Shown here: positions 47,323 through 60,383 of the stretch, piece by piece
Position numbering within the stretch: the stretch's first letter is position 1
How the letters are laid out: the number at the start of each line of letters is the position of its first letter
Sequence record: EF437941
From: Escherichia phage Phi1
Length of the DNA: 64,000 nucleotides
Reading direction: 5' to 3' (one strand)
Program-made: the position numbers and the translations under genes
Notes under the pieces: generated by a model
Told to the model about the DNA's origin: nothing
Databases searched by the model: none
What the model saw: the letters and a program-made list of their open reading frames with translations, nothing else

Positions 47323-47351
47323 ATTATGCTATACCATGATCCGGTTGTCAA
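47323..47351 (-). promoter_or_regulatory. early promoter
   Basis: TTGACA-N17-CATAAT. Confidence 0.5.
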
Positions 47352-47702: not shown

Positions 47703-48101
47703 TTAAGCCAGTCGAGTGAGTTTATAAATTGTTTTAAAGCATAGAGCTTTGATATCGTCTAAAACACTCTGTAACGAGCTATCAACATCATTATAAATCT
47801 CACTAGCCATTTGCGTTAACTCTTGCAAATAGGCAATTTCGCTAATCTCCTTGCGGACGACCAACGTTGGCTGATAACGACCAGTGATCCCAATATTGGT
47901 TTCAGTGAAATTATCAACCAATTCTTGCATTTCAAGATAGAACTCTTCTAGAGCCTTATGTTTTGCATAAGACCCCGGACCAGTTACCCCAAAATGCGCA
48001 GAATGCATATAAGTAACACTCATCAGACATTCACCGATAAAGCGGTCAACTTTATTAGCTTTCCCATCTTCGGACGTCTTTCGAAAATCACTGAATTTCA
48101 T
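47703..48101 (-). CDS. hypothetical protein, possibly ferritin/Dps-like
   Basis: YMHSAHFGVTGPGSYAKHKALEEFY resembles Dps helix-A/B signature; shorter than Dps; start set at internal ATG. Confidence 0.45.
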   Translation of the reverse strand: MKFSDFRKTSEDGKANKVDRFIGECLMSVTYMHSAHFGVTGPGSYAKHKALEEFYLEMQELVDNFTETNIGITGRYQPTLVVRKEISEIAYLQELTQMASEIYNDVDSSLQSVLDDIKALCFKTIYKLTRLA

Positions 48102-48390
48102 GTTCTCGATTCTCCATATTATGCAACATAACAAATTGTTGTGCGGCATATTCCCCCATAATAAAACACTGCTTAGAATCCATACATTTACTACGAGCAT
48201 ACATCTTCATAATATGGGCATGAAATTTCTGGCTGGTTTCAATGGAAGGAGATATTTTGTTTACATATACTATCATTGCACCGTCGAAATAATCAGTAAA
48301 GTCACCAGTTGGATCATATTGATCAGCACTAACGCTTCCGACCGCAGTAAAGCATATTGCCGCTGTTAGAGTTTTACGAATAAATGACAT
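48088..48390 (-). CDS. rI: RI lysis-inhibition antiholin-like periplasmic protein
   Basis: 100 aa; N-terminal signal/anchor; two Cys in C-terminal domain; adjacent to tk; late-promoter motif upstream. Confidence 0.55.
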   Translation of the reverse strand: MSFIRKTLTAAICFTAVGSVSADQYDPTGDFTDYFDGAMIVYVNKISPSIETSQKFHAHIMKMYARSKCMDSKQCFIMGEYAAQQFVMLHNMENREHEIQ

Positions 48391-48423
48391 AAGTCATTCC
48401 CCCAGATTTAAAATATTCAGTTA

Positions 48424-48431
48424 TATTTATA
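48424..48431 (-). promoter_or_regulatory. T4-type late promoter motif TATAAATA
   Basis: exact TATAAATA on minus strand about 35 nt upstream of the rI-like ATG. Confidence 0.45.
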
Positions 48432-48458
48432 ATCTGGGGCTTTATTTATGATTAACTC

Positions 48459-53275: not shown

Positions 53276-53308
53276 AAACGAAAAAGCCAACCCTTTTCGG
53301 ATTGGCTT
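53276..53308 (-). terminator. rho-independent terminator
   Basis: GCCAATCCGAAAAGGGTTGGC hairpin followed by T-run, downstream of grcA-like gene. Confidence 0.55.
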
Positions 53309-54417: not shown

Positions 54418-54807
54418 TTATTTTTGGTCTGGGTATTTGCTGTGTGGTAATTGTAGATGAGGACCATCTTTAAACGATACCCAATCCCCACCCCATTCAA
54501 CAGGAACACCCAATTCTCGACCAGCTTGTTTAAATGCATCAGCGATCATGCGGTAATATTTCATATTCCATGTATCTTTATCTTTCGGATACGCTACAAC
54601 GTCAACCGCGAAACCGTGAAGATGACGAGATTTCATAGTCTTAGATTTACCTTCCGCAACATATTTCTTTTGCGTTGCGAGACTACGCACACCTTCCGTA
54701 ATACCAAAATCGACCGGAGTCAGTTCTAACGCACGATGAACGACTTTTACCAGGTCTGGATGTACACCAACAAGCCGATCTTTGCTTCTTTGAGATAATT
54801 TAAACAT
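54418..54807 (-). CDS. endolysin, L-alanyl-D-glutamate peptidase (peptidase M15/VanY-like)
   Basis: 129 aa; SRHLHGFAVDV zinc-binding motif (SxHxxGxAxD) and C-terminal His; occupies the position of lysozyme e. Confidence 0.8.
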   Translation of the reverse strand: MFKLSQRSKDRLVGVHPDLVKVVHRALELTPVDFGITEGVRSLATQKKYVAEGKSKTMKSRHLHGFAVDVVAYPKDKDTWNMKYYRMIADAFKQAGRELGVPVEWGGDWVSFKDGPHLQLPHSKYPDQK

Positions 54808-54835
54808 TATTCACCCCCTTTGTGAGTGATAATAT

Positions 54836-55027
54836 TTAGATTCCGGCGATCCTGCATAGAGTTCTTGTATTAGCACCAATAAGGATAGCATTAACGACAA
54901 CCATTCCCCAATCAACCCACGGATTATTATAAATGTTAAATCCGTTTGTTAGGCCAAATACAAGCATTCCAGTACACATACTCAGAGCAACAATCAACAT
55001 CACGGTAAAACCAAATGCAAATCTCAT
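54836..55027 (-). CDS. small membrane protein
   Basis: 63 aa, two hydrophobic helices. Confidence 0.45.
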   Translation of the reverse strand: MRFAFGFTVMLIVALSMCTGMLVFGLTNGFNIYNNPWVDWGMVVVNAILIGANTRTLCRIAGI

Positions 55028-55028
55028 A

Positions 55029-55295
55029 TCATTTTCCTTTTCTCTGTTTACGTTTATAAAAGTAATACATTACATCATCACGTCCGGTGATCCAACATGC
55101 TAGGGCAGTAAACAGGTTTACAATTCCCAACACACCTACTGACGCGGCGCTGTCAACAGACATAGGAACAGTAAAGGCCATAGCTAACATAGCAACGCCA
55201 CAAATGACATTAAGCACCATTATAATAAGACCGAAGAAAACCATTGTCAATCCTCCCAAATAAGAAAACCAACAATCACGCCAGTGATAAGACAT
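55029..55295 (-). CDS. small membrane protein
   Basis: 88 aa, hydrophobic. Confidence 0.45.
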   Translation of the reverse strand: MSYHWRDCWFSYLGGLTMVFFGLIIMVLNVICGVAMLAMAFTVPMSVDSAASVGVLGIVNLFTALACWITGRDDVMYYFYKRKQRKGK

Positions 55296-55438
55296 GATGC
55301 GCCGCTAATAAGACAACCCGCGCCAAGTGATTCCCACCAGATCAGAGAAGCGACAATAACGCAAAATCCCCAGACTACCGCAATCACAACATAGGCAATG
55401 GTCGCCCAAAACATATATTTGTTCATAATAAACCCCAT
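55247..55438 (-). CDS. small membrane protein
   Basis: 63 aa, hydrophobic. Confidence 0.4.
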   Translation of the reverse strand: MGFIMNKYMFWATIAYVVIAVVWGFCVIVASLIWWESLGAGCLISGASCLITGVIVGFLIWED

Positions 55439-55611
55439 TCACCAAACAAATAAGAAAAAAGCCATATCAACAGAAACGAGGCAATTGATCCGGCAAGCAA
55501 AATGATATTAGAGAATCCGCCGTCTATCCAGGCGACAAAACAGAATACGCCAGTATAGAAGCATAAACCCATTACAAAGCATACTATAAGCAACCATAGA
55601 CAAAACGCCAT
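55423..55611 (-). CDS. small membrane protein
   Basis: 62 aa, hydrophobic. Confidence 0.4.
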   Translation of the reverse strand: MAFCLWLLIVCFVMGLCFYTGVFCFVAWIDGGFSNIILLAGSIASFLLIWLFSYLFGEWGLL

Positions 55612-55672
55612 AGAAAGCCCTCCATCGAGATAAATTAGTGCGGGTAGGGGACTGCACTACCCGCTTTGTTAA

Positions 55673-55831
55673 TCAACGCAGAGCTTGTTCTAGCGCGATC
55701 CCAAACCATCCACAAACAACGCCCATACAGACAGCTACAAGAAGATTCATTCTCTCTTTAGGGATCATTGCAATCATAACAACAACCATACAGAAAGCCA
55801 TTACCATTGAAGTTAACATTTGTTCAACCAT
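55673..55831 (-). CDS. small membrane protein (52 aa)
   Basis: manual translation MVEQMLTSMVMAFCMVVVMIAM... Confidence 0.35.
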   Translation of the reverse strand: MVEQMLTSMVMAFCMVVVMIAMIPKERMNLLVAVCMGVVCGWFGIALEQALR

Positions 55832-55833
55832 TA

Positions 55834-56172
55834 TCACACCTTTAAAGTCATAGACGCATAAACATTAATGCCAGGCCAGTTAGGATCGCAATTATACTCA
55901 ACATCCCACAAATAAAGCGGTTTAGATGTATCAGCCAAGTTTTTAAAATCTTCTACCCACATTTCAATGCTATATGATGGATAAACTAGGCTGTCATATC
56001 CTCCGTAACGTTGGCCTACTGGTCGGTCAGTAAAAACTACCTCAAGATCCGGTAATTCTTTTTCAAGGATAACCGCCAGCGCATAAATCAGACGGTCTTC
56101 CTTGTTACGCTGCCGAAGGACCGTTGTCAGTTGGTTTTTCTGGTTCACTAGCAAGCACCTCCACATTTTCAC
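55834..56172 (-). CDS. hypothetical protein (start uncertain; overlaps upstream ORF by 68 nt)
   Basis: 112-aa ORF. Confidence 0.4.
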   Translation of the reverse strand: MKMWRCLLVNQKNQLTTVLRQRNKEDRLIYALAVILEKELPDLEVVFTDRPVGQRYGGYDSLVYPSYSIEMWVEDFKNLADTSKPLYLWDVEYNCDPNWPGINVYASMTLKV

Positions 56173-56425
56173 AGAATGAAATTTTCACAGACACAATTTT
56201 ACCATAAGTGAAGAATGAATATACATTATCGATATATTCAACGTCACCTACAATCACATCAAACTGCGGATCAGCAACCGCCGCAACATATTCTACCAGT
56301 TCATCAAGAGAATGCAACTTAATTTCATCAATTCGGCTGTATTTGGTTGCATCTTTGATTTTAAAACCACGTTCTTTCAGCTTATCAATTAGAATTTCAC
56401 GCGGAGTTTCAAACAGTTTGCTCAT
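56105..56425 (-). CDS. hypothetical protein
   Basis: 106-aa ORF with GAGGATT RBS. Confidence 0.5.
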   Translation of the reverse strand: MSKLFETPREILIDKLKERGFKIKDATKYSRIDEIKLHSLDELVEYVAAVADPQFDVIVGDVEYIDNVYSFFTYGKIVSVKISFCENVEVLASEPEKPTDNGPSAA

Positions 56426-56446
56426 AATATAATCCTCACATTAAAT

Positions 56447-56647
56447 CTAAAATTTGTTAACGACGAATTGCATAATTAGACTAATCACAAACATTGCAAA
56501 CCAAGTATAAATGCAACAGATAAAAGCTACATACAATTCAATCTGGTCAGAGAATACACCGGGTAAAAGCATTAGCAAAATAACAACAGTAAAGACGCTA
56601 GCGATACCCGCAACAAAACCAATATCATTTTTACTAATCGTCATCAA
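56447..56647 (-). CDS. small membrane protein
   Basis: 66 aa hydrophobic. Confidence 0.45.
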   Translation of the reverse strand: MMTISKNDIGFVAGIASVFTVVILLMLLPGVFSDQIELYVAFICCIYTWFAMFVISLIMQFVVNKF

Positions 56648-56853
56648 GTCACCGTTTTGTAAAGAAACACAATAAAATCCAAGACAAGAAAGACAGTGTA
56701 AATGATCATCGTCAAGACAGTAAACACTGTCAAATTTTCATCGTTAGTTAATTCATAGTCGCCCATCCATACAATCACAAGATATAGCATTGAAAGAATG
56801 GAAGCACCTACGAAGTTAAAAAACATATTCTTGAGCGTCATATTAACAACCAT
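56644..56853 (-). CDS. small membrane protein
   Basis: 69 aa hydrophobic. Confidence 0.45.
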   Translation of the reverse strand: MVVNMTLKNMFFNFVGASILSMLYLVIVWMGDYELTNDENLTVFTVLTMIIYTVFLVLDFIVFLYKTVT

Positions 56854-57025
56854 CGCGGCTTAAGTCAACAGCAATTGCATACAGCATAATGAATATGCTA
56901 GCAGATCCAAGAATCAATACACCCTCACATTTTGAAACTCGCTCATCAAAATGTAACATTATCCATCCGAGGATGTTAAAGGCGCAGACCGCGCCTATGT
57001 TCGCTAACCAATTAATCTTTTTCAT
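56843..57025 (-). CDS. small membrane protein
   Basis: 60 aa hydrophobic. Confidence 0.4.
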   Translation of the reverse strand: MKKINWLANIGAVCAFNILGWIMLHFDERVSKCEGVLILGSASIFIMLYAIAVDLSRDGC

Positions 57026-57033
57026 AATATACC

Positions 57034-57360
57034 TTAGAAAGAAACAGTTTTCAAGAAATCCAGATTTTCAGTACCGAAAACAGAAAAGTAGTGTTTTCCT
57101 TTTTCGGTTTTAGAGAAAGCGATTGTCTTCTCTACATGGTGACGGAAGCCAGACAGACGATCACCCAGGTCAAGGCGGCAAGCGTAAGTAGTGCCGTTTT
57201 CGAAAGTAACCTCGATTTGAGTTTTGTCATATTCGCTTTCATAGGCTTTTGCTGCCGCGTCCTGTGCTTTACGCTCGAAGTCTTCGAAGTGGAATACTTC
57301 GTTTGCGTTAGCGAATACAGAAGATTCAGAGAAGATAACTTTAACAGATACTGGTTTCAT
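57034..57360 (-). CDS. hypothetical protein
   Basis: 108-aa ORF with cassette RBS. Confidence 0.5.
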   Translation of the reverse strand: MKPVSVKVIFSESSVFANANEVFHFEDFERKAQDAAAKAYESEYDKTQIEVTFENGTTYACRLDLGDRLSGFRHHVEKTIAFSKTEKGKHYFSVFGTENLDFLKTVSF

Positions 57361-57402
57361 TTTGATACTCCTTAGTAGTTCGTGTTTCGTTTCGATGGGT
57401 GT

Positions 57403-57431
57403 ATTATGCTATACACCCTCTTGTGTGTCAA
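57403..57431 (-). promoter_or_regulatory. early promoter
   Basis: TTGACA-N17-CATAAT. Confidence 0.5.
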
Positions 57432-57439
57432 CAACTTTT

Positions 57440-57628
57440 TTAGTCTTTTTTCATAATTTCTAGAGCAGTTTCTACAGCACCTTTCCAACCCTCCCACATA
57501 ATGGACATAGTAATGAAGTTAAAGCACCCGCAGGAATCAACCTTTTTAGAGATAAACCATTCAACAAATCCTTCGCTCATACCATGCTCTTTAGCGGATT
57601 CGCGTAATTGTTCAATTTGGTCTTCCAT
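57440..57628 (-). CDS. hypothetical protein
   Basis: 62-aa ORF. Confidence 0.45.
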   Translation of the reverse strand: MEDQIEQLRESAKEHGMSEGFVEWFISKKVDSCGCFNFITMSIMWEGWKGAVETALEIMKKD

Positions 57629-57637
57629 AGTATCACC

Positions 57638-57826
57638 TCAACACTTAACGTTATTCAAACGATTTTGAAAGTACATATAGCAAGCATAATTTTGCTTTGG
57701 TTGTACCGTATCAGATAGACACGCTTTTACAGCCTCGCGGTCCGATGGATCTACACCCTCAGCTTTAAGTAATGCTAAAATCTGGTTATATCGTACTCTT
57801 AGTTGTACTAATGGTTTATCCCCCAT
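57638..57826 (-). CDS. hypothetical protein
   Basis: start at internal ATG after GGGGG RBS. Confidence 0.45.
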   Translation of the reverse strand: MGDKPLVQLRVRYNQILALLKAEGVDPSDREAVKACLSDTVQPKQNYACYMYFQNRLNNVKC

Positions 57827-57836
57827 ATTACCCCCA

Positions 57837-58064
57837 TTATAGTTGATCAGCAATGTATGCGGTGCATTTGCGGAGTTTAGCCATAGCACCACCTTTCATG
57901 TCGCTTGCGCCTACAATGTTCATGATCTCTAAGCGATCAGCCGGATTCAGTCTAGTAGCCCAGATCTGGTTAGCCAGTTCCATTTTACCCATCTGCGGTT
58001 CCATCTCAAACAGTTCACGCTCAAAGTCGATAATTTCTTTTGCGGCGTCTTTAAAGTTAATCAT
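57837..58064 (-). CDS. hypothetical protein
   Basis: 75-aa ORF with cassette RBS. Confidence 0.5.
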   Translation of the reverse strand: MINFKDAAKEIIDFERELFEMEPQMGKMELANQIWATRLNPADRLEIMNIVGASDMKGGAMAKLRKCTAYIADQL

Positions 58065-58093
58065 TTTGATTCTCCCGTTTCGTTGATGGTTGT

Positions 58094-58122
58094 ATTGTAG
58101 GGGAGTTATCCTCCCCTGTCAA
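58094..58122 (-). promoter_or_regulatory. early promoter (PeSL-type)
   Basis: TTGACA GGGGAGGATAACTCCCC TACAAT: spacer is a hairpin. Confidence 0.5.
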
Positions 58123-58130
58123 CACTTTTA

Positions 58131-58316
58131 TCAGAAATATGCAATATAGTTTGCCAGTCCTACAGAGTCATCATTCGGCATTGCTTTTACTGCCAGTTCA
58201 AACCCTGCTTCAACTTTCTGTTTAGCGGATTCTTCGTTATAACCCCAGATTACCAGAATAGCTACTACGTTTTCTTTGCTTACTGCTTTCAGTGCTTTAG
58301 TGATGCGACGTGCCAT
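58131..58316 (-). CDS. hypothetical protein
   Basis: 61-aa ORF. Confidence 0.45.
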   Translation of the reverse strand: MARRITKALKAVSKENVVAILVIWGYNEESAKQKVEAGFELAVKAMPNDDSVGLANYIAYF

Positions 58317-58362
58317 AATTTGATTCTCCGTTTAAGAAAGTGTGTTTCGTTTCGATGGGTGT

Positions 58363-58391
58363 ATTATGCTATAGGCCGGATCTGGTGTCAA
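58363..58391 (-). promoter_or_regulatory. early promoter
   Basis: TTGACA-N17-CATAAT. Confidence 0.5.
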
Positions 58392-58415
58392 CAACTTTTT
58401 TAAAAAAATTTTAGG

Positions 58416-58444
58416 CAATAAAAAAGCCACTCCGAAGAGTGGCT
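58416..58444 (-). terminator. rho-independent terminator
   Basis: AGCCACTCTTCGGAGTGGCT hairpin (UUCG loop) followed by T6. Confidence 0.6.
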
Positions 58445-58448
58445 TATA

Positions 58449-58590
58449 GGGAAGGTAGCGAATCTTCCTTGTCTCCAACCTGCTAGCGGCCTAGCAAGTG
58501 AATGCTTTAGCGTACCGGATCGCCCACATACGCTGTAATAAATGCGGCTAGGTGACGTCCAAATCATTCTAACCGCGCTGTCTTTAGTTC
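58449..58590 (-). ncRNA. candidate small structured RNA (untranslated region between late-promoter motif and terminator)
   Basis: no plausible ORF; two stable hairpins; TATAAATA motif at 58596..58603 upstream and terminator downstream. Confidence 0.25.
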
Positions 58591-58594
58591 ACTA

Positions 58595-58813
58595 TTATTT
58601 ATATCGCTTTCTCTCGCGACGTTTTTGATCTTCTTCCTTGATAGAGTTAAATGCATCAAAAAGACACATGACACTGATAATGAACATAACCGTATTTTCT
58701 ACGATATCCAACGGCTTCGCATCAGTACAGATCACCCAAACGGTAAGAAATGCAAATAAGGCAGAAGAGATCACAAGCATGATACTTGCTAAGATATAAA
58801 AAGTCATTTTCAT
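58595..58813 (-). CDS. small membrane protein
   Basis: 72 aa, two TM helices then basic tail. Confidence 0.45.
   Translation of the reverse strand: MKMTFYILASIMLVISSALFAFLTVWVICTDAKPLDIVENTVMFIISVMCLFDAFNSIKEEDQKRRERKRYK
58596..58603 (-). promoter_or_regulatory. T4-type late promoter motif TATAAATA
   Basis: exact TATAAATA on minus strand. Confidence 0.35.
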
Positions 58814-59004
58814 GGTTTTACCTCAATTCTTCGATATTCATCACACATCCACGCAGTAAGCAAGAATCCCAACACATAAGCAACAAAATACGTTAATGCT
58901 TCTTCTGGTTCGGTGCTATGCGCCATCATCAGACCAGCGAGAAAGGTCTTAACAATTACATTTAAAATAATTAGCCACGCAAATAATTTCATCGTTTGCC
59001 CCAT
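58810..59004 (-). CDS. small membrane protein
   Basis: 64 aa. Confidence 0.45.
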   Translation of the reverse strand: MGQTMKLFAWLIILNVIVKTFLAGLMMAHSTEPEEALTYFVAYVLGFLLTAWMCDEYRRIEVKP

Positions 59005-59228
59005 TTCGGACGAGTCTTTTCAAACTTATACATTACGCAACAATCTCGAATCATCCACGTAACAAGAGCACCAGTCAACACAGACAACACACAGAAGAAG
59101 TAAAACGGTCCGGTTGCATTATCAACATGAGCAAGCCATGTAAAGAAAACACATGCAAGGAATGTAAAGAACATCATAAAACACAAGAAAGCAAAATATT
59201 TTATGCTACTCATAGCGCCACCATACAA
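58989..59228 (-). CDS. small membrane protein
   Basis: 79 aa. Confidence 0.45.
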   Translation of the reverse strand: MYGGAMSSIKYFAFLCFMMFFTFLACVFFTWLAHVDNATGPFYFFCVLSVLTGALVTWMIRDCCVMYKFEKTRPKWGKR

Positions 59229-59316
59229 CAGATCATAAGAAAACCCAACGCAATAAGAATTGCATCAAATTTAGTGAACTCCGGTCCACCTATCAACATC
59301 ATTCGTTCCTGTTCAG

Positions 59317-59559
59317 TTATAGATCACAGAGCCATCTTAAAGCACCACATAAAGCGAGCAGAATACTAGGTATAAACGAGATCAAAACAAGTTTGCAAAA
59401 ATCATCTAAGGTAACACCGGAATAGCTACCAACTGTAACAACACCGATCATAAGACACAGAAAGAAAACAAATGCAATCAGAAACAAAGTATTGCTAAAC
59501 AGTTTAGTGATCATTAGACACCCCACGACGGTCAATTTCAAAAACTTTTTTATCATCAA
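59317..59559 (-). CDS. small membrane protein
   Basis: 80 aa. Confidence 0.45.
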   Translation of the reverse strand: MMIKKFLKLTVVGCLMITKLFSNTLFLIAFVFFLCLMIGVVTVGSYSGVTLDDFCKLVLISFIPSILLALCGALRWLCDL

Positions 59560-60354: not shown

Positions 60355-60383
60355 ATTATGCTATAGTCGTTTATGGTTGTCAA
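60355..60383 (-). promoter_or_regulatory. early promoter
   Basis: TTGACA-N17-CATAAT. Confidence 0.5.

Follow-up and report, generated by a model that had tools for sequence, protein, structure and literature searches.

The DNA analysed here, a stretch of 64,000 nucleotides (nt) from Escherichia phage Phi1 (sequence record EF437941; hereafter the window), carries at positions 54418–55831 the gene of an M15-type peptidase endolysin and, directly 5′ of it, five very small genes for hydrophobic proteins, which we refer to as s1 to s5 counting away from the endolysin; every gene of this region lies on the minus strand. An initial annotation had placed the endolysin in the position occupied by lysozyme gene e in phage T4 and had suggested that the small open reading frames (ORFs) could include holin/antiholin, spanin-like or superinfection-exclusion proteins. 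To these features we add a late-promoter-like box inside a predicted RNA hairpin in front of the endolysin gene. Comparison of a 3.3-kb stretch around the endolysin and the small ORFs revealed 97–98% DNA identity to 56 complete Krischvirus (Straboviridae) genomes, the best matches including GEC-3S and RB49 (98%); when the small-ORF stretch was searched by itself at higher sensitivity, 57 Krischvirus records and no others were returned. Because identity at the 97–98% level was confined to Krischvirus records, the source of the window is, on sequence grounds, an RB49-like, T4-type coliphage of this genus; window coordinates correspond approximately to RB49 coordinates minus 300.

The endolysin gene (54418–54807, minus strand; ortholog of RB49p102) encodes a zinc-dependent M15 (M15_C) L-alanyl-D-glutamate peptidase of 129 residues containing the motif SRHLHGFAVDV, from which a VanY/M15-type L-Ala-D-Glu peptidase had initially been called. 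Family and structure searches bear this call out: the product scored 44.6 bits with Pfam PF13539 Peptidase_M15_4 (E 2.2e-11; cut-off 25 bits) and matched, at E 2e-68, PHROG 465 ‘endolysin’, the M15_C endolysin family with 1,259 phage records, and it is ~98% identical over its full length to the solved structures PDB 23ri_A and 8q2g_A, the second of which bears the name ‘peptidoglycan L-alanyl-D-glutamate endopeptidase’. More distant structure matches were Serratia ChiX (5opz, E 2e-37) and the T5 endolysin (2mxz, E 2e-21). RB49p102, annotated in the RB49 record as ‘putative endolysin’, corresponds to EndoRB49, reportedly the L-alanyl-D-glutamate peptidase of phage RB49 treated by Mikoulinskaia et al. 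(J Gen Virol 99:402, 2018). The zinc ligands H62, D69 and H117 are all present in the window enzyme, as are the catalytic D114 and W109, and the same five residues are the active-site residues reported for EndoRB49 (PMC10487532). A hydropathy scan found no hydrophobic segment in the endolysin, indicating that it has neither a signal peptide nor a signal-arrest-release (SAR) domain. EndoRB49 has been purified and its L-Ala-D-Glu cleavage demonstrated (PMC8140593, PMC10487532), and by its sequence the window enzyme is an M15 L-Ala-D-Glu peptidase endolysin whose cleavage is known from this 98%-identical protein. The initial reading of the enzyme was thus correct and already known; since purification, assays and solved structures of the ortholog are on record, the enzyme in itself adds nothing new. 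The claim that it stands in the position of T4 e was right as to the block and the orientation, since the gene lies in the same vs.8-to-57B block and points the same way, but T4 has denV, ipII and ipIII between vs.8 and e.

The five small hydrophobic ORFs noted directly 5′ of the endolysin were all recovered, and starts preceded by Shine–Dalgarno sequences give products of 63, 71, 59, 62 and 52 residues for s1 to s5. The corresponding longest ORFs are of 63 (54836–55027), 88 (55029–55295), 63 (55247–55438), 62 (55423–55611) and 54 (55673–55837) residues; for s2 the start was set at the ATG at 55244, which has GGAGG 8 nt on its 5′ side, and not at that of the 88-residue longest ORF. All on the minus strand, s1 (54836–55027; RB49p103 ortholog; PHROG 15016, unknown function) encodes two hydrophobic helices and a conserved loop, NGFxIYNNPWVDWG; s2 (55029–55244; RB49p104 ortholog) encodes two transmembrane (TM) helices and a basic tail, YYFYKRKQRKGK; s3 (55247–55426; RB49p105 ortholog; PHROG 16151) encodes two TM segments and overlaps the s4 stop with its start (ATGA); the product of s4 (55423–55611; RB49p106 ortholog) is extremely hydrophobic and contains no K or R; and that of s5 (55673–55831; RB49p107 ortholog; PHROG 16035) has two TM segments connected by a basic loop, PKERMN. 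Hydropathy analysis revealed two hydrophobic segments in each of the five proteins, with maximal 19-residue Kyte–Doolittle scores of 2.2–2.7, so none of them lacks candidate TM helices. AlphaFold2 returned two-helix hairpins for s2 (mean predicted local distance difference test (pLDDT) score 73; helices 2–25 and 30–69) and s1 (pLDDT 63), at moderate to low confidence. A charged C-terminal tail is present in s2 and absent from s1, s3, s4 and s5. The junctions s4/s3, s3/s2 and s2/s1 measure −4, +2 and +1 nt, a packing typical of translationally coupled genes, and the tightly packed s4-s3-s2-s1 row is therefore probably coupled in translation. In the records of phages JEP8, ELT3, ELT4, AV108 and PHB13 the s2 orthologs are labelled ‘tail length tape-measure protein’, evidently an annotation error under propagation.

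Such short frames might be nothing more than chance openings in a T-rich spacer, as could be argued from their length, from their lack of family matches and from the fact that one or two of them are unannotated in several public records. Conservation argues otherwise. Across nine genomes, in which we computed the ratio of nonsynonymous to synonymous polymorphism (pN/pS), s1, s2, s3 and s5 were intact in 9/9 with values of 0.04–0.26; with s4 (0.42) included, the five genes span 0.04–0.42. The most constrained is s2 (pN/pS 0.04), whose second TM helix and tail are invariant. More distant metagenomic contigs, in which s2 is 79–86% identical, keep the order s5-s4-s3-s2-s1-endolysin with all five small genes intact, and the ratio of nonsynonymous to synonymous substitution rates (dN/dS) against these contigs was 0.13–0.39 for the four scorable small genes, with dS up to 0.7; s5 was excluded because its length differs in the diverged contigs. 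Purifying selection on each of s1–s5, synteny in the diverged contigs, the Shine–Dalgarno sites, start/stop junctions of −4 to +2 nt and the assignment of each small gene to a PHROG family of its own make chance frames very improbable, and we conclude that s1–s5 are genuine genes. Among them s4 carries a deletion of ~146 bp in phage ELT4 and a frameshift in ECD7 and is present in 56 of 57 records; because it is deleted in the one phage and frameshifted in the other, s4 is, judging by these genomes, individually dispensable.

The distribution of these genes is narrow. Using tblastn at E≤1 against 50,697 phage genomes, we found no homologs of s1–s5 outside Krischvirus-like sequences, s3 being detected solely in the 57 Krischvirus records and s5 solely in Krischvirus. 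Word-seeded searches of 5.8e9 proteins with s1 and s2 gave no match outside Krischvirus-like sequences, and a full HMMER profile search, carried out for s2 alone against 1.84e9 representatives, found no homolog outside its own cluster. In scans against PHROGs and Pfam (the latter at E≤0.01 and at E≤10), no small protein reached a Pfam threshold even with hits listed up to E≤10; PHROGs contributed only families of unknown function confined to one genus, and Pfam only compositional hits below threshold. On the evidence of these searches, s1–s5 belong to no described family.

The new element of our analysis lies between s1 and the endolysin. A late-promoter-like box, TCTAAATA (54833–54840, minus strand), is located at −33 from the endolysin ATG, where it overlaps the s1 stop codon; the window has no second copy of it, and the RB49 record (NC_005066) labels an identical 8-mer at 142181–142188 ‘late RB49 promoter’. 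The box falls inside the 5′ arm of a predicted RNA hairpin (54797–54842, minus strand; core 54801–54838), in which the 5′ arm AAAUAUUAUCACUC pairs with GGGUG-AAUAAUGUUU and the stem (G30–G34, A36–A45) pairs both the Shine–Dalgarno sequence and the AUG of the endolysin. The hairpin has a folding energy (dG) of −12.5 kcal/mol and a z-score of −4.39, and 0 of 200 shuffled sequences were as stable. The 28 nt from the s1 stop to the endolysin ATG, together with flanking bases, read TCTAAATATTATCACTCACAAAGGGGGTGAATA, a stretch that is identical in eight Krischvirus genomes and four diverged contigs, the sole exception being an extra loop G in ECD7; the 33-nt spacer in front of the endolysin is invariant in these 12 relatives although dS in the adjoining endolysin coding sequence is ~0.9. 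Because a late box spans −13 to −6 relative to the transcription start (PMC1524935), the predicted late start falls at ~54827, and late transcripts are predicted to lack most of the 5′ arm, losing 11 of its 15 paired bases. The opening energy of the endolysin start, calculated as the energy needed to unpair positions −18 to +10 around the start codon, was 14.45 kcal/mol in a read-through RNA versus 5.3–6.1 (about 5.5) kcal/mol in a late-start RNA. Computed likewise, T4 e, which has boxes at −34 and −21, gave 15.9 versus 4.3/1.6 kcal/mol. These predictions suggest that the endolysin is switched on late by a hairpin/promoter device like that of T4 lysozyme, and that the late box inside the masking hairpin is a plausible new example of a known device, here in front of an M15 endolysin.

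Several observations weigh against this picture. In the long RNA, equally high values were computed for the translation starts of s4 (14.4 kcal/mol) and s2 (12.9 kcal/mol), so opening energy alone is not specific, and we rejected it as a sufficient marker of endolysin repression. At position 2 the box TCTAAATA does not follow the T4 consensus, TATAAATA, and a C at this position is rare outside phage Aeh1 (Nolan et al., PMC1524935). Furthermore, the s1 stop codon sits within the 5′ arm of the hairpin; because it lies inside the stem, a ribosome terminating on s1 might melt the hairpin, so that some endolysin would be made early along with s1, which would soften the ‘off early’ state. The use of the promoter, the position of the late start and the repression of translation are predictions throughout, and a literature search that reached neither Mikoulinskaia et al. 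2018 nor Desplats et al. 2002 found nothing on the small ORFs or on the EndoRB49 promoter.

The same design is predicted at two further genes. The window encodes a T4-type RI antiholin (48088–48390, minus strand; Pfam PF24205, E 2e-23), and RB49 has rI too; the rI gene has a perfect TATAAATA box at 48431–48424 inside the 5′ arm of a hairpin (48378–48440) whose 3′ arm carries the Shine–Dalgarno sequence (dG −24.9, z −7.0), with opening energies of 24.0 kcal/mol in the long RNA versus 9.0 kcal/mol from a late start. In the RB43-like Citrobacter phage Miller, the M15 endolysin is preceded by CGTAAATA inside a nested hairpin (L016 3440–3515), the outer stem of which (GCCUCU/AGAGGU; z −4.8) covers the Shine–Dalgarno sequence, and the opening energy falls from 9.0 to 2.7 kcal/mol. 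The combination of hairpin and late box therefore seems to recur at rI and at the Miller endolysin, at the latter with unrelated sequence.

We identified a stereotyped class of early promoters consisting of an A-rich tract, GTTGACA, 17 nt, TAGCATAAT and CAC.CAT, which is represented in the window by 18 sites on the minus strand and none on the plus strand (0.14 expected); examples on the minus strand lie at 60383, 58391, 58122, 57431, 47351 and 46109. The site nearest to the small genes is GTTGACA-N17-CATAAT at 57403–57431 (minus strand), and two further promoters of the class stand at 58391–58363 and 58122–58094 (minus strand); diverged relatives preserve the −35 and −10 elements of all three, with spacers that vary. 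Beyond 57431 the next site of the class occurs only at 47351. A strong terminator lies upstream at 58445–58424, and an intrinsic terminator, likewise strong, with a 10-bp stem and a T run, conserved in relatives, closes the unit downstream of the vs.6/GrcA-like gene (53284–53308, minus strand). From this arrangement of promoters and terminators, the genes from s8, a further small membrane gene described below, to s1, the endolysin, vs.8 and the GrcA-like vs.6 appear to form one early unit. Late boxes of the form TNTAAATA number seven on the minus strand in 64 kb, with none between 58596 and 54840, so the small genes would have no late promoter of their own. An internal sigma-70-like site at 55250–55222 (11/12 matches) was discounted as a promoter, since it runs across the stop of s3 and the start of s2, falls outside the stereotyped class and is degraded in contig L014. 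RegB is an early-mRNA nuclease with GGAG as its target; the Shine–Dalgarno sites of s2 and s4 contain GGAG and the endolysin site does not. The early placement of s1–s5 agrees with Nolan et al. 2006 (PMC1524935), according to whom the expression of novel ORFs in T4-like phages seems to accompany that of early genes.

This early context bears on what the small proteins might do. The initial suggestion that they include holin or antiholin components fared poorly: RB49 encodes its T4-type holin T elsewhere (RB49p254), the RI antiholin is encoded within the window, the small genes lie in an early unit, and their holin-family Pfam hits reached only E 0.05–9 and 7–14 bits, against cut-offs of 27–29. 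Two TM helices followed by a basic C-terminal tail are nevertheless the architecture of class II holins, and s2, with 71 residues, two TM helices and a strongly basic C-tail, one gene away from the endolysin and the most constrained of the five, is a point against keeping the small proteins outside lysis. One or more of them, with s2 and s1 as the first candidates, could act together with the endolysin as a second holin or pinholin, as an antiholin or as a timing modulator, being either a remnant of a holin–endolysin cassette or an addition to one. The small genes adjoin the endolysin on the same strand, the s1 stop within the start-masking hairpin permits translational coupling to the endolysin, and ChiX of Serratia, a close homolog of the endolysin, presumably works with a holin-like partner, which we count in favour of a lysis role. 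We nonetheless think such a role improbable, because a full T4-type set (T, RI and spanins) exists, the small genes lie behind early promoters and have no late promoter, the holin-family hits are far below threshold, and no homologs were found in other phages, including ~1,200 non-Krischvirus records with this endolysin family. In Miller, the one other lineage examined, the neighbours of the M15 endolysin are quite different, mostly soluble, and include no cluster of small membrane genes, so the linkage of small genes and endolysin would be specific to Krischvirus. A pinholin, moreover, would not release this endolysin, because the enzyme has no SAR domain. The holin-like traits of s2 (small size, TM segments and a charged C-terminus) are common to many non-holins.

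The spanin-like role proposed at the outset did not survive comparison with the sequences. Proximity to the endolysin is all that speaks for an i-spanin, o-spanin or u-spanin component among the small ORFs; direct reading of s1–s5 found neither a lipobox followed by Cys nor a periplasmic or soluble domain, the proteins being 52–71 residues long and nearly all membrane-embedded, and this absence of a lipobox and of a soluble periplasmic domain rules out spanins to the point where we give the idea practically no chance. RB49 in addition encodes the spanins PseT.3/PseT.2 elsewhere in its genome (RB49p222/221), and Kongari et al. (PMC6139136) include it in both T4 spanin families. Taking the holin and spanin results together, we infer that s1–s5 are not parts of the lysis machinery.

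Superinfection exclusion, the third of the suggested roles, would make the small proteins analogs of T4 Imm or Sp that block the entry of later phage DNA. T4 Imm is a small early inner-membrane protein, as the products of s1–s5 would be; no imm or sp is annotated in the examined RB49 stretches 200–61,401 and 114,100–164,018 (61–114 kb was not inspected), and genus-restricted, fast-evolving mosaic genes (dS 0.25–0.8, cassette swaps) fit phage–phage conflict. Against this, s1–s8 showed no match to Pfam Imm_superinfect, and no similarity to another family, at E≤10, no particular ORF is tied to exclusion, and the pN/pS of 0.04 for s2 is unlike that of a typical arms-race gene; we regard exclusion as possible but on balance unlikely. 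A more elaborate arrangement, which we consider improbable, is that s4-s3-s2-s1, perhaps with s5, form a hitherto undescribed, Krischvirus-specific hetero-oligomeric inner-membrane complex serving exclusion, the neutralisation of a host defence that acts at the membrane, or T-holin timing, with the s1 stop inside the hairpin coupling it physically to endolysin translation. Nothing in the analysis pointed positively to a particular function for any of the small proteins.

The small genes belong to a membrane-gene cluster that is larger than first described, comprising eleven genes in 4.7 kb: the window holds 12 strongly hydrophobic small genes, and 11 of these lie within 54836–59556 (hypergeometric P ~4e-8). 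A second sub-cluster (56447–57025, minus strand) consists of three small two-TM genes, s6 (56447–56644), s7 (56644–56841) and s8 (56843–57025), and a third group of small hydrophobic genes (58595–59556, minus strand), encoding 72, 64 and 79 residues, belongs to the upstream transcription unit. No Pfam match was obtained for s1–s8 or for the third group. The idea of a recently duplicated family was dropped because all-against-all blastp and phmmer comparisons of s1–s8 gave no pair above 20 bits. The gene s7 is frameshifted in W115 and ELT4, and s6/s7 are swapped for a different small membrane gene in SFHK24, phiS, Makalu_003 and JSE, which indicates that s6/s7 are a variable cassette; the changes in s4, s6 and s7 point, in these genomes, to cassette-like turnover. 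The groups s1–s5 and s6–s8 are separated by two overlapping genes for soluble proteins (55834–56425, minus strand; RB49p108/p109 orthologs, 104 and 106 residues, 44-nt overlap, one GTG start), which are very strongly conserved (dN/dS 0.02–0.18) and gave no family match. Between s5 and s4 lies a GC-rich hairpin with an 8-bp stem (GCGGGUAG / CUACCCGC; 55640–55664, minus strand; dG −14.3, z −3.2), the stem of which is conserved while its 9-nt loop differs in almost every genome; with a weak U-containing tract on its 3′ side, it is possibly an attenuator or an mRNA stabiliser. On the other side of the locus, JSE and phiS carry a 191-residue homing endonuclease (HNH_3 + AP2) between vs.8 and the endolysin, just 3′ of the latter, and the last ~26 codons of their endolysin are a divergent mosaic (ICGVDWVTFKDGPHMELDKKVYPDPV). 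Co-conversion by the homing endonuclease as the source of this 3′ end is suggestive at most, the same variant being present in contig L012 without an endonuclease.

Together, these results support, as the reading we find somewhat more probable than not, a model in which an M15 endolysin is gated like T4 e and accompanied by early accessory membrane proteins that act outside lysis. In this model the endolysin would occupy roughly the slot of T4 lysozyme e and would have replaced its function. On early read-through RNA the hairpin would bury the endolysin Shine–Dalgarno sequence and AUG and keep the enzyme silent, and transcripts from the TCTAAATA promoter, starting at ~54827 without the 5′ arm, would allow its translation late. 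Because the endolysin has no export signal, it would stay in the cytoplasm and have to await the T4-type holin T, which the RI antiholin keeps in check; once T had released the enzyme, the spanins PseT.3/PseT.2 would complete lysis. The proteins s1–s5 would be made from the early promoters as genus-restricted two-helix inner-membrane proteins and would most likely have early accessory roles at the host envelope, such as the exclusion of competing phages or counter-defence. Enzyme identity, the reality of the small genes, their membrane character and restricted distribution, and the promoter and hairpin sequences with their conservation were read directly from the data; expression timing, the gating of translation and what the small proteins do we infer from them.

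Taken soberly, the locus is an ordinary, characterised endolysin in a known genus next to an unexplained, unremarkable island of orphan membrane genes. Its interest lies first in control: an endolysin that is not homologous to T4 lysozyme but fills its role has apparently come under the same regulation, and, if this is true, selection acts on the regulatory logic that silences a lytic enzyme on early RNA and not on a particular sequence. Second, to our knowledge few early host-envelope functions are understood in T4-type phages, and eleven small genus-restricted membrane proteins in 4.7 kb constitute a compact candidate set for such functions. The locus also carries a warning for annotation, in that small hydrophobic ORFs beside an endolysin should not by default be named ‘holin’ or ‘tape-measure’.

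Among characterised enzymes the closest counterpart of the window endolysin is EndoRB49 (NP_891673; PDB 8q2g, 23ri), which has the same 129 residues in length, ~98% identity, the same active-site residues and the same genomic position. Relative to the 23ri sequence the window enzyme has three substitutions, A44 for E, V110 for T and Q128 for P, from which no functional effect is expected. EndoT5 (2mxz), ChiX (5opz) and the M15_C family share the fold family, the motif H-x6-D ... D-x2-H and a single-domain globular build; EndoT5 is activated by calcium and EndoRB49 is not (PMC10487532), and ChiX, unlike the phage endolysin described here, is a bacterial secretion-associated enzyme. For the small proteins, class II holins and pinholins such as S21 68 of phage 21 offer the nearest architectural likeness, s2 resembling them in length (71 residues), in its two TM helices and in its basic C-tail, but differing in having no family match, in its early promoter context, in the presence of a T holin and in an endolysin that has no SAR domain. 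T4 Imm, Sp and Ac and the products of e.3, e.4 and trna.4 are likewise small hydrophobic products of the plastic vs.8–57B region, encoded on the same strand. The uncharacterised T4 ORFs e.3, e.4 and trna.4 (L015 5958–6694 and 11330–11515), located 5′ of e, score as membrane proteins, so the region 5′ of the endolysin holds hydrophobic ORFs in T4 too; however, these show no sequence similarity to the small proteins of the window (tblastn E≤1), and e.3 and e.4 are about twice as long.

The comparison that matters most for the model is with T4 gene e itself, where gating by a late promoter and a masking hairpin has been demonstrated (McPheeters et al. 1986, NAR 14:5813, as reviewed in PMC3014915). 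The same review lists RB49 among the phages ‘with no apparent gene e’, so the RB49-type endolysin locus was not examined there. Differences between the two loci are that the window encodes a non-homologous enzyme behind an unrelated leader, with the stop of an upstream ORF within the stem, that it has one box, TCTAAATA, and T4 e has two, TATAAATA, and that the device is known here by prediction. What the window locus shares with T4 e is a late-promoter-like box inside the 5′ arm of a hairpin predicted to mask both the Shine–Dalgarno sequence and the AUG, at −33 here and −34 in T4, a computed drop in opening energy from 14.5 to 5.5 kcal/mol here and from 15.9 to 4.3 kcal/mol in T4, and a place for the lytic gene at the end of an early read-through unit, a predicted one in the window.

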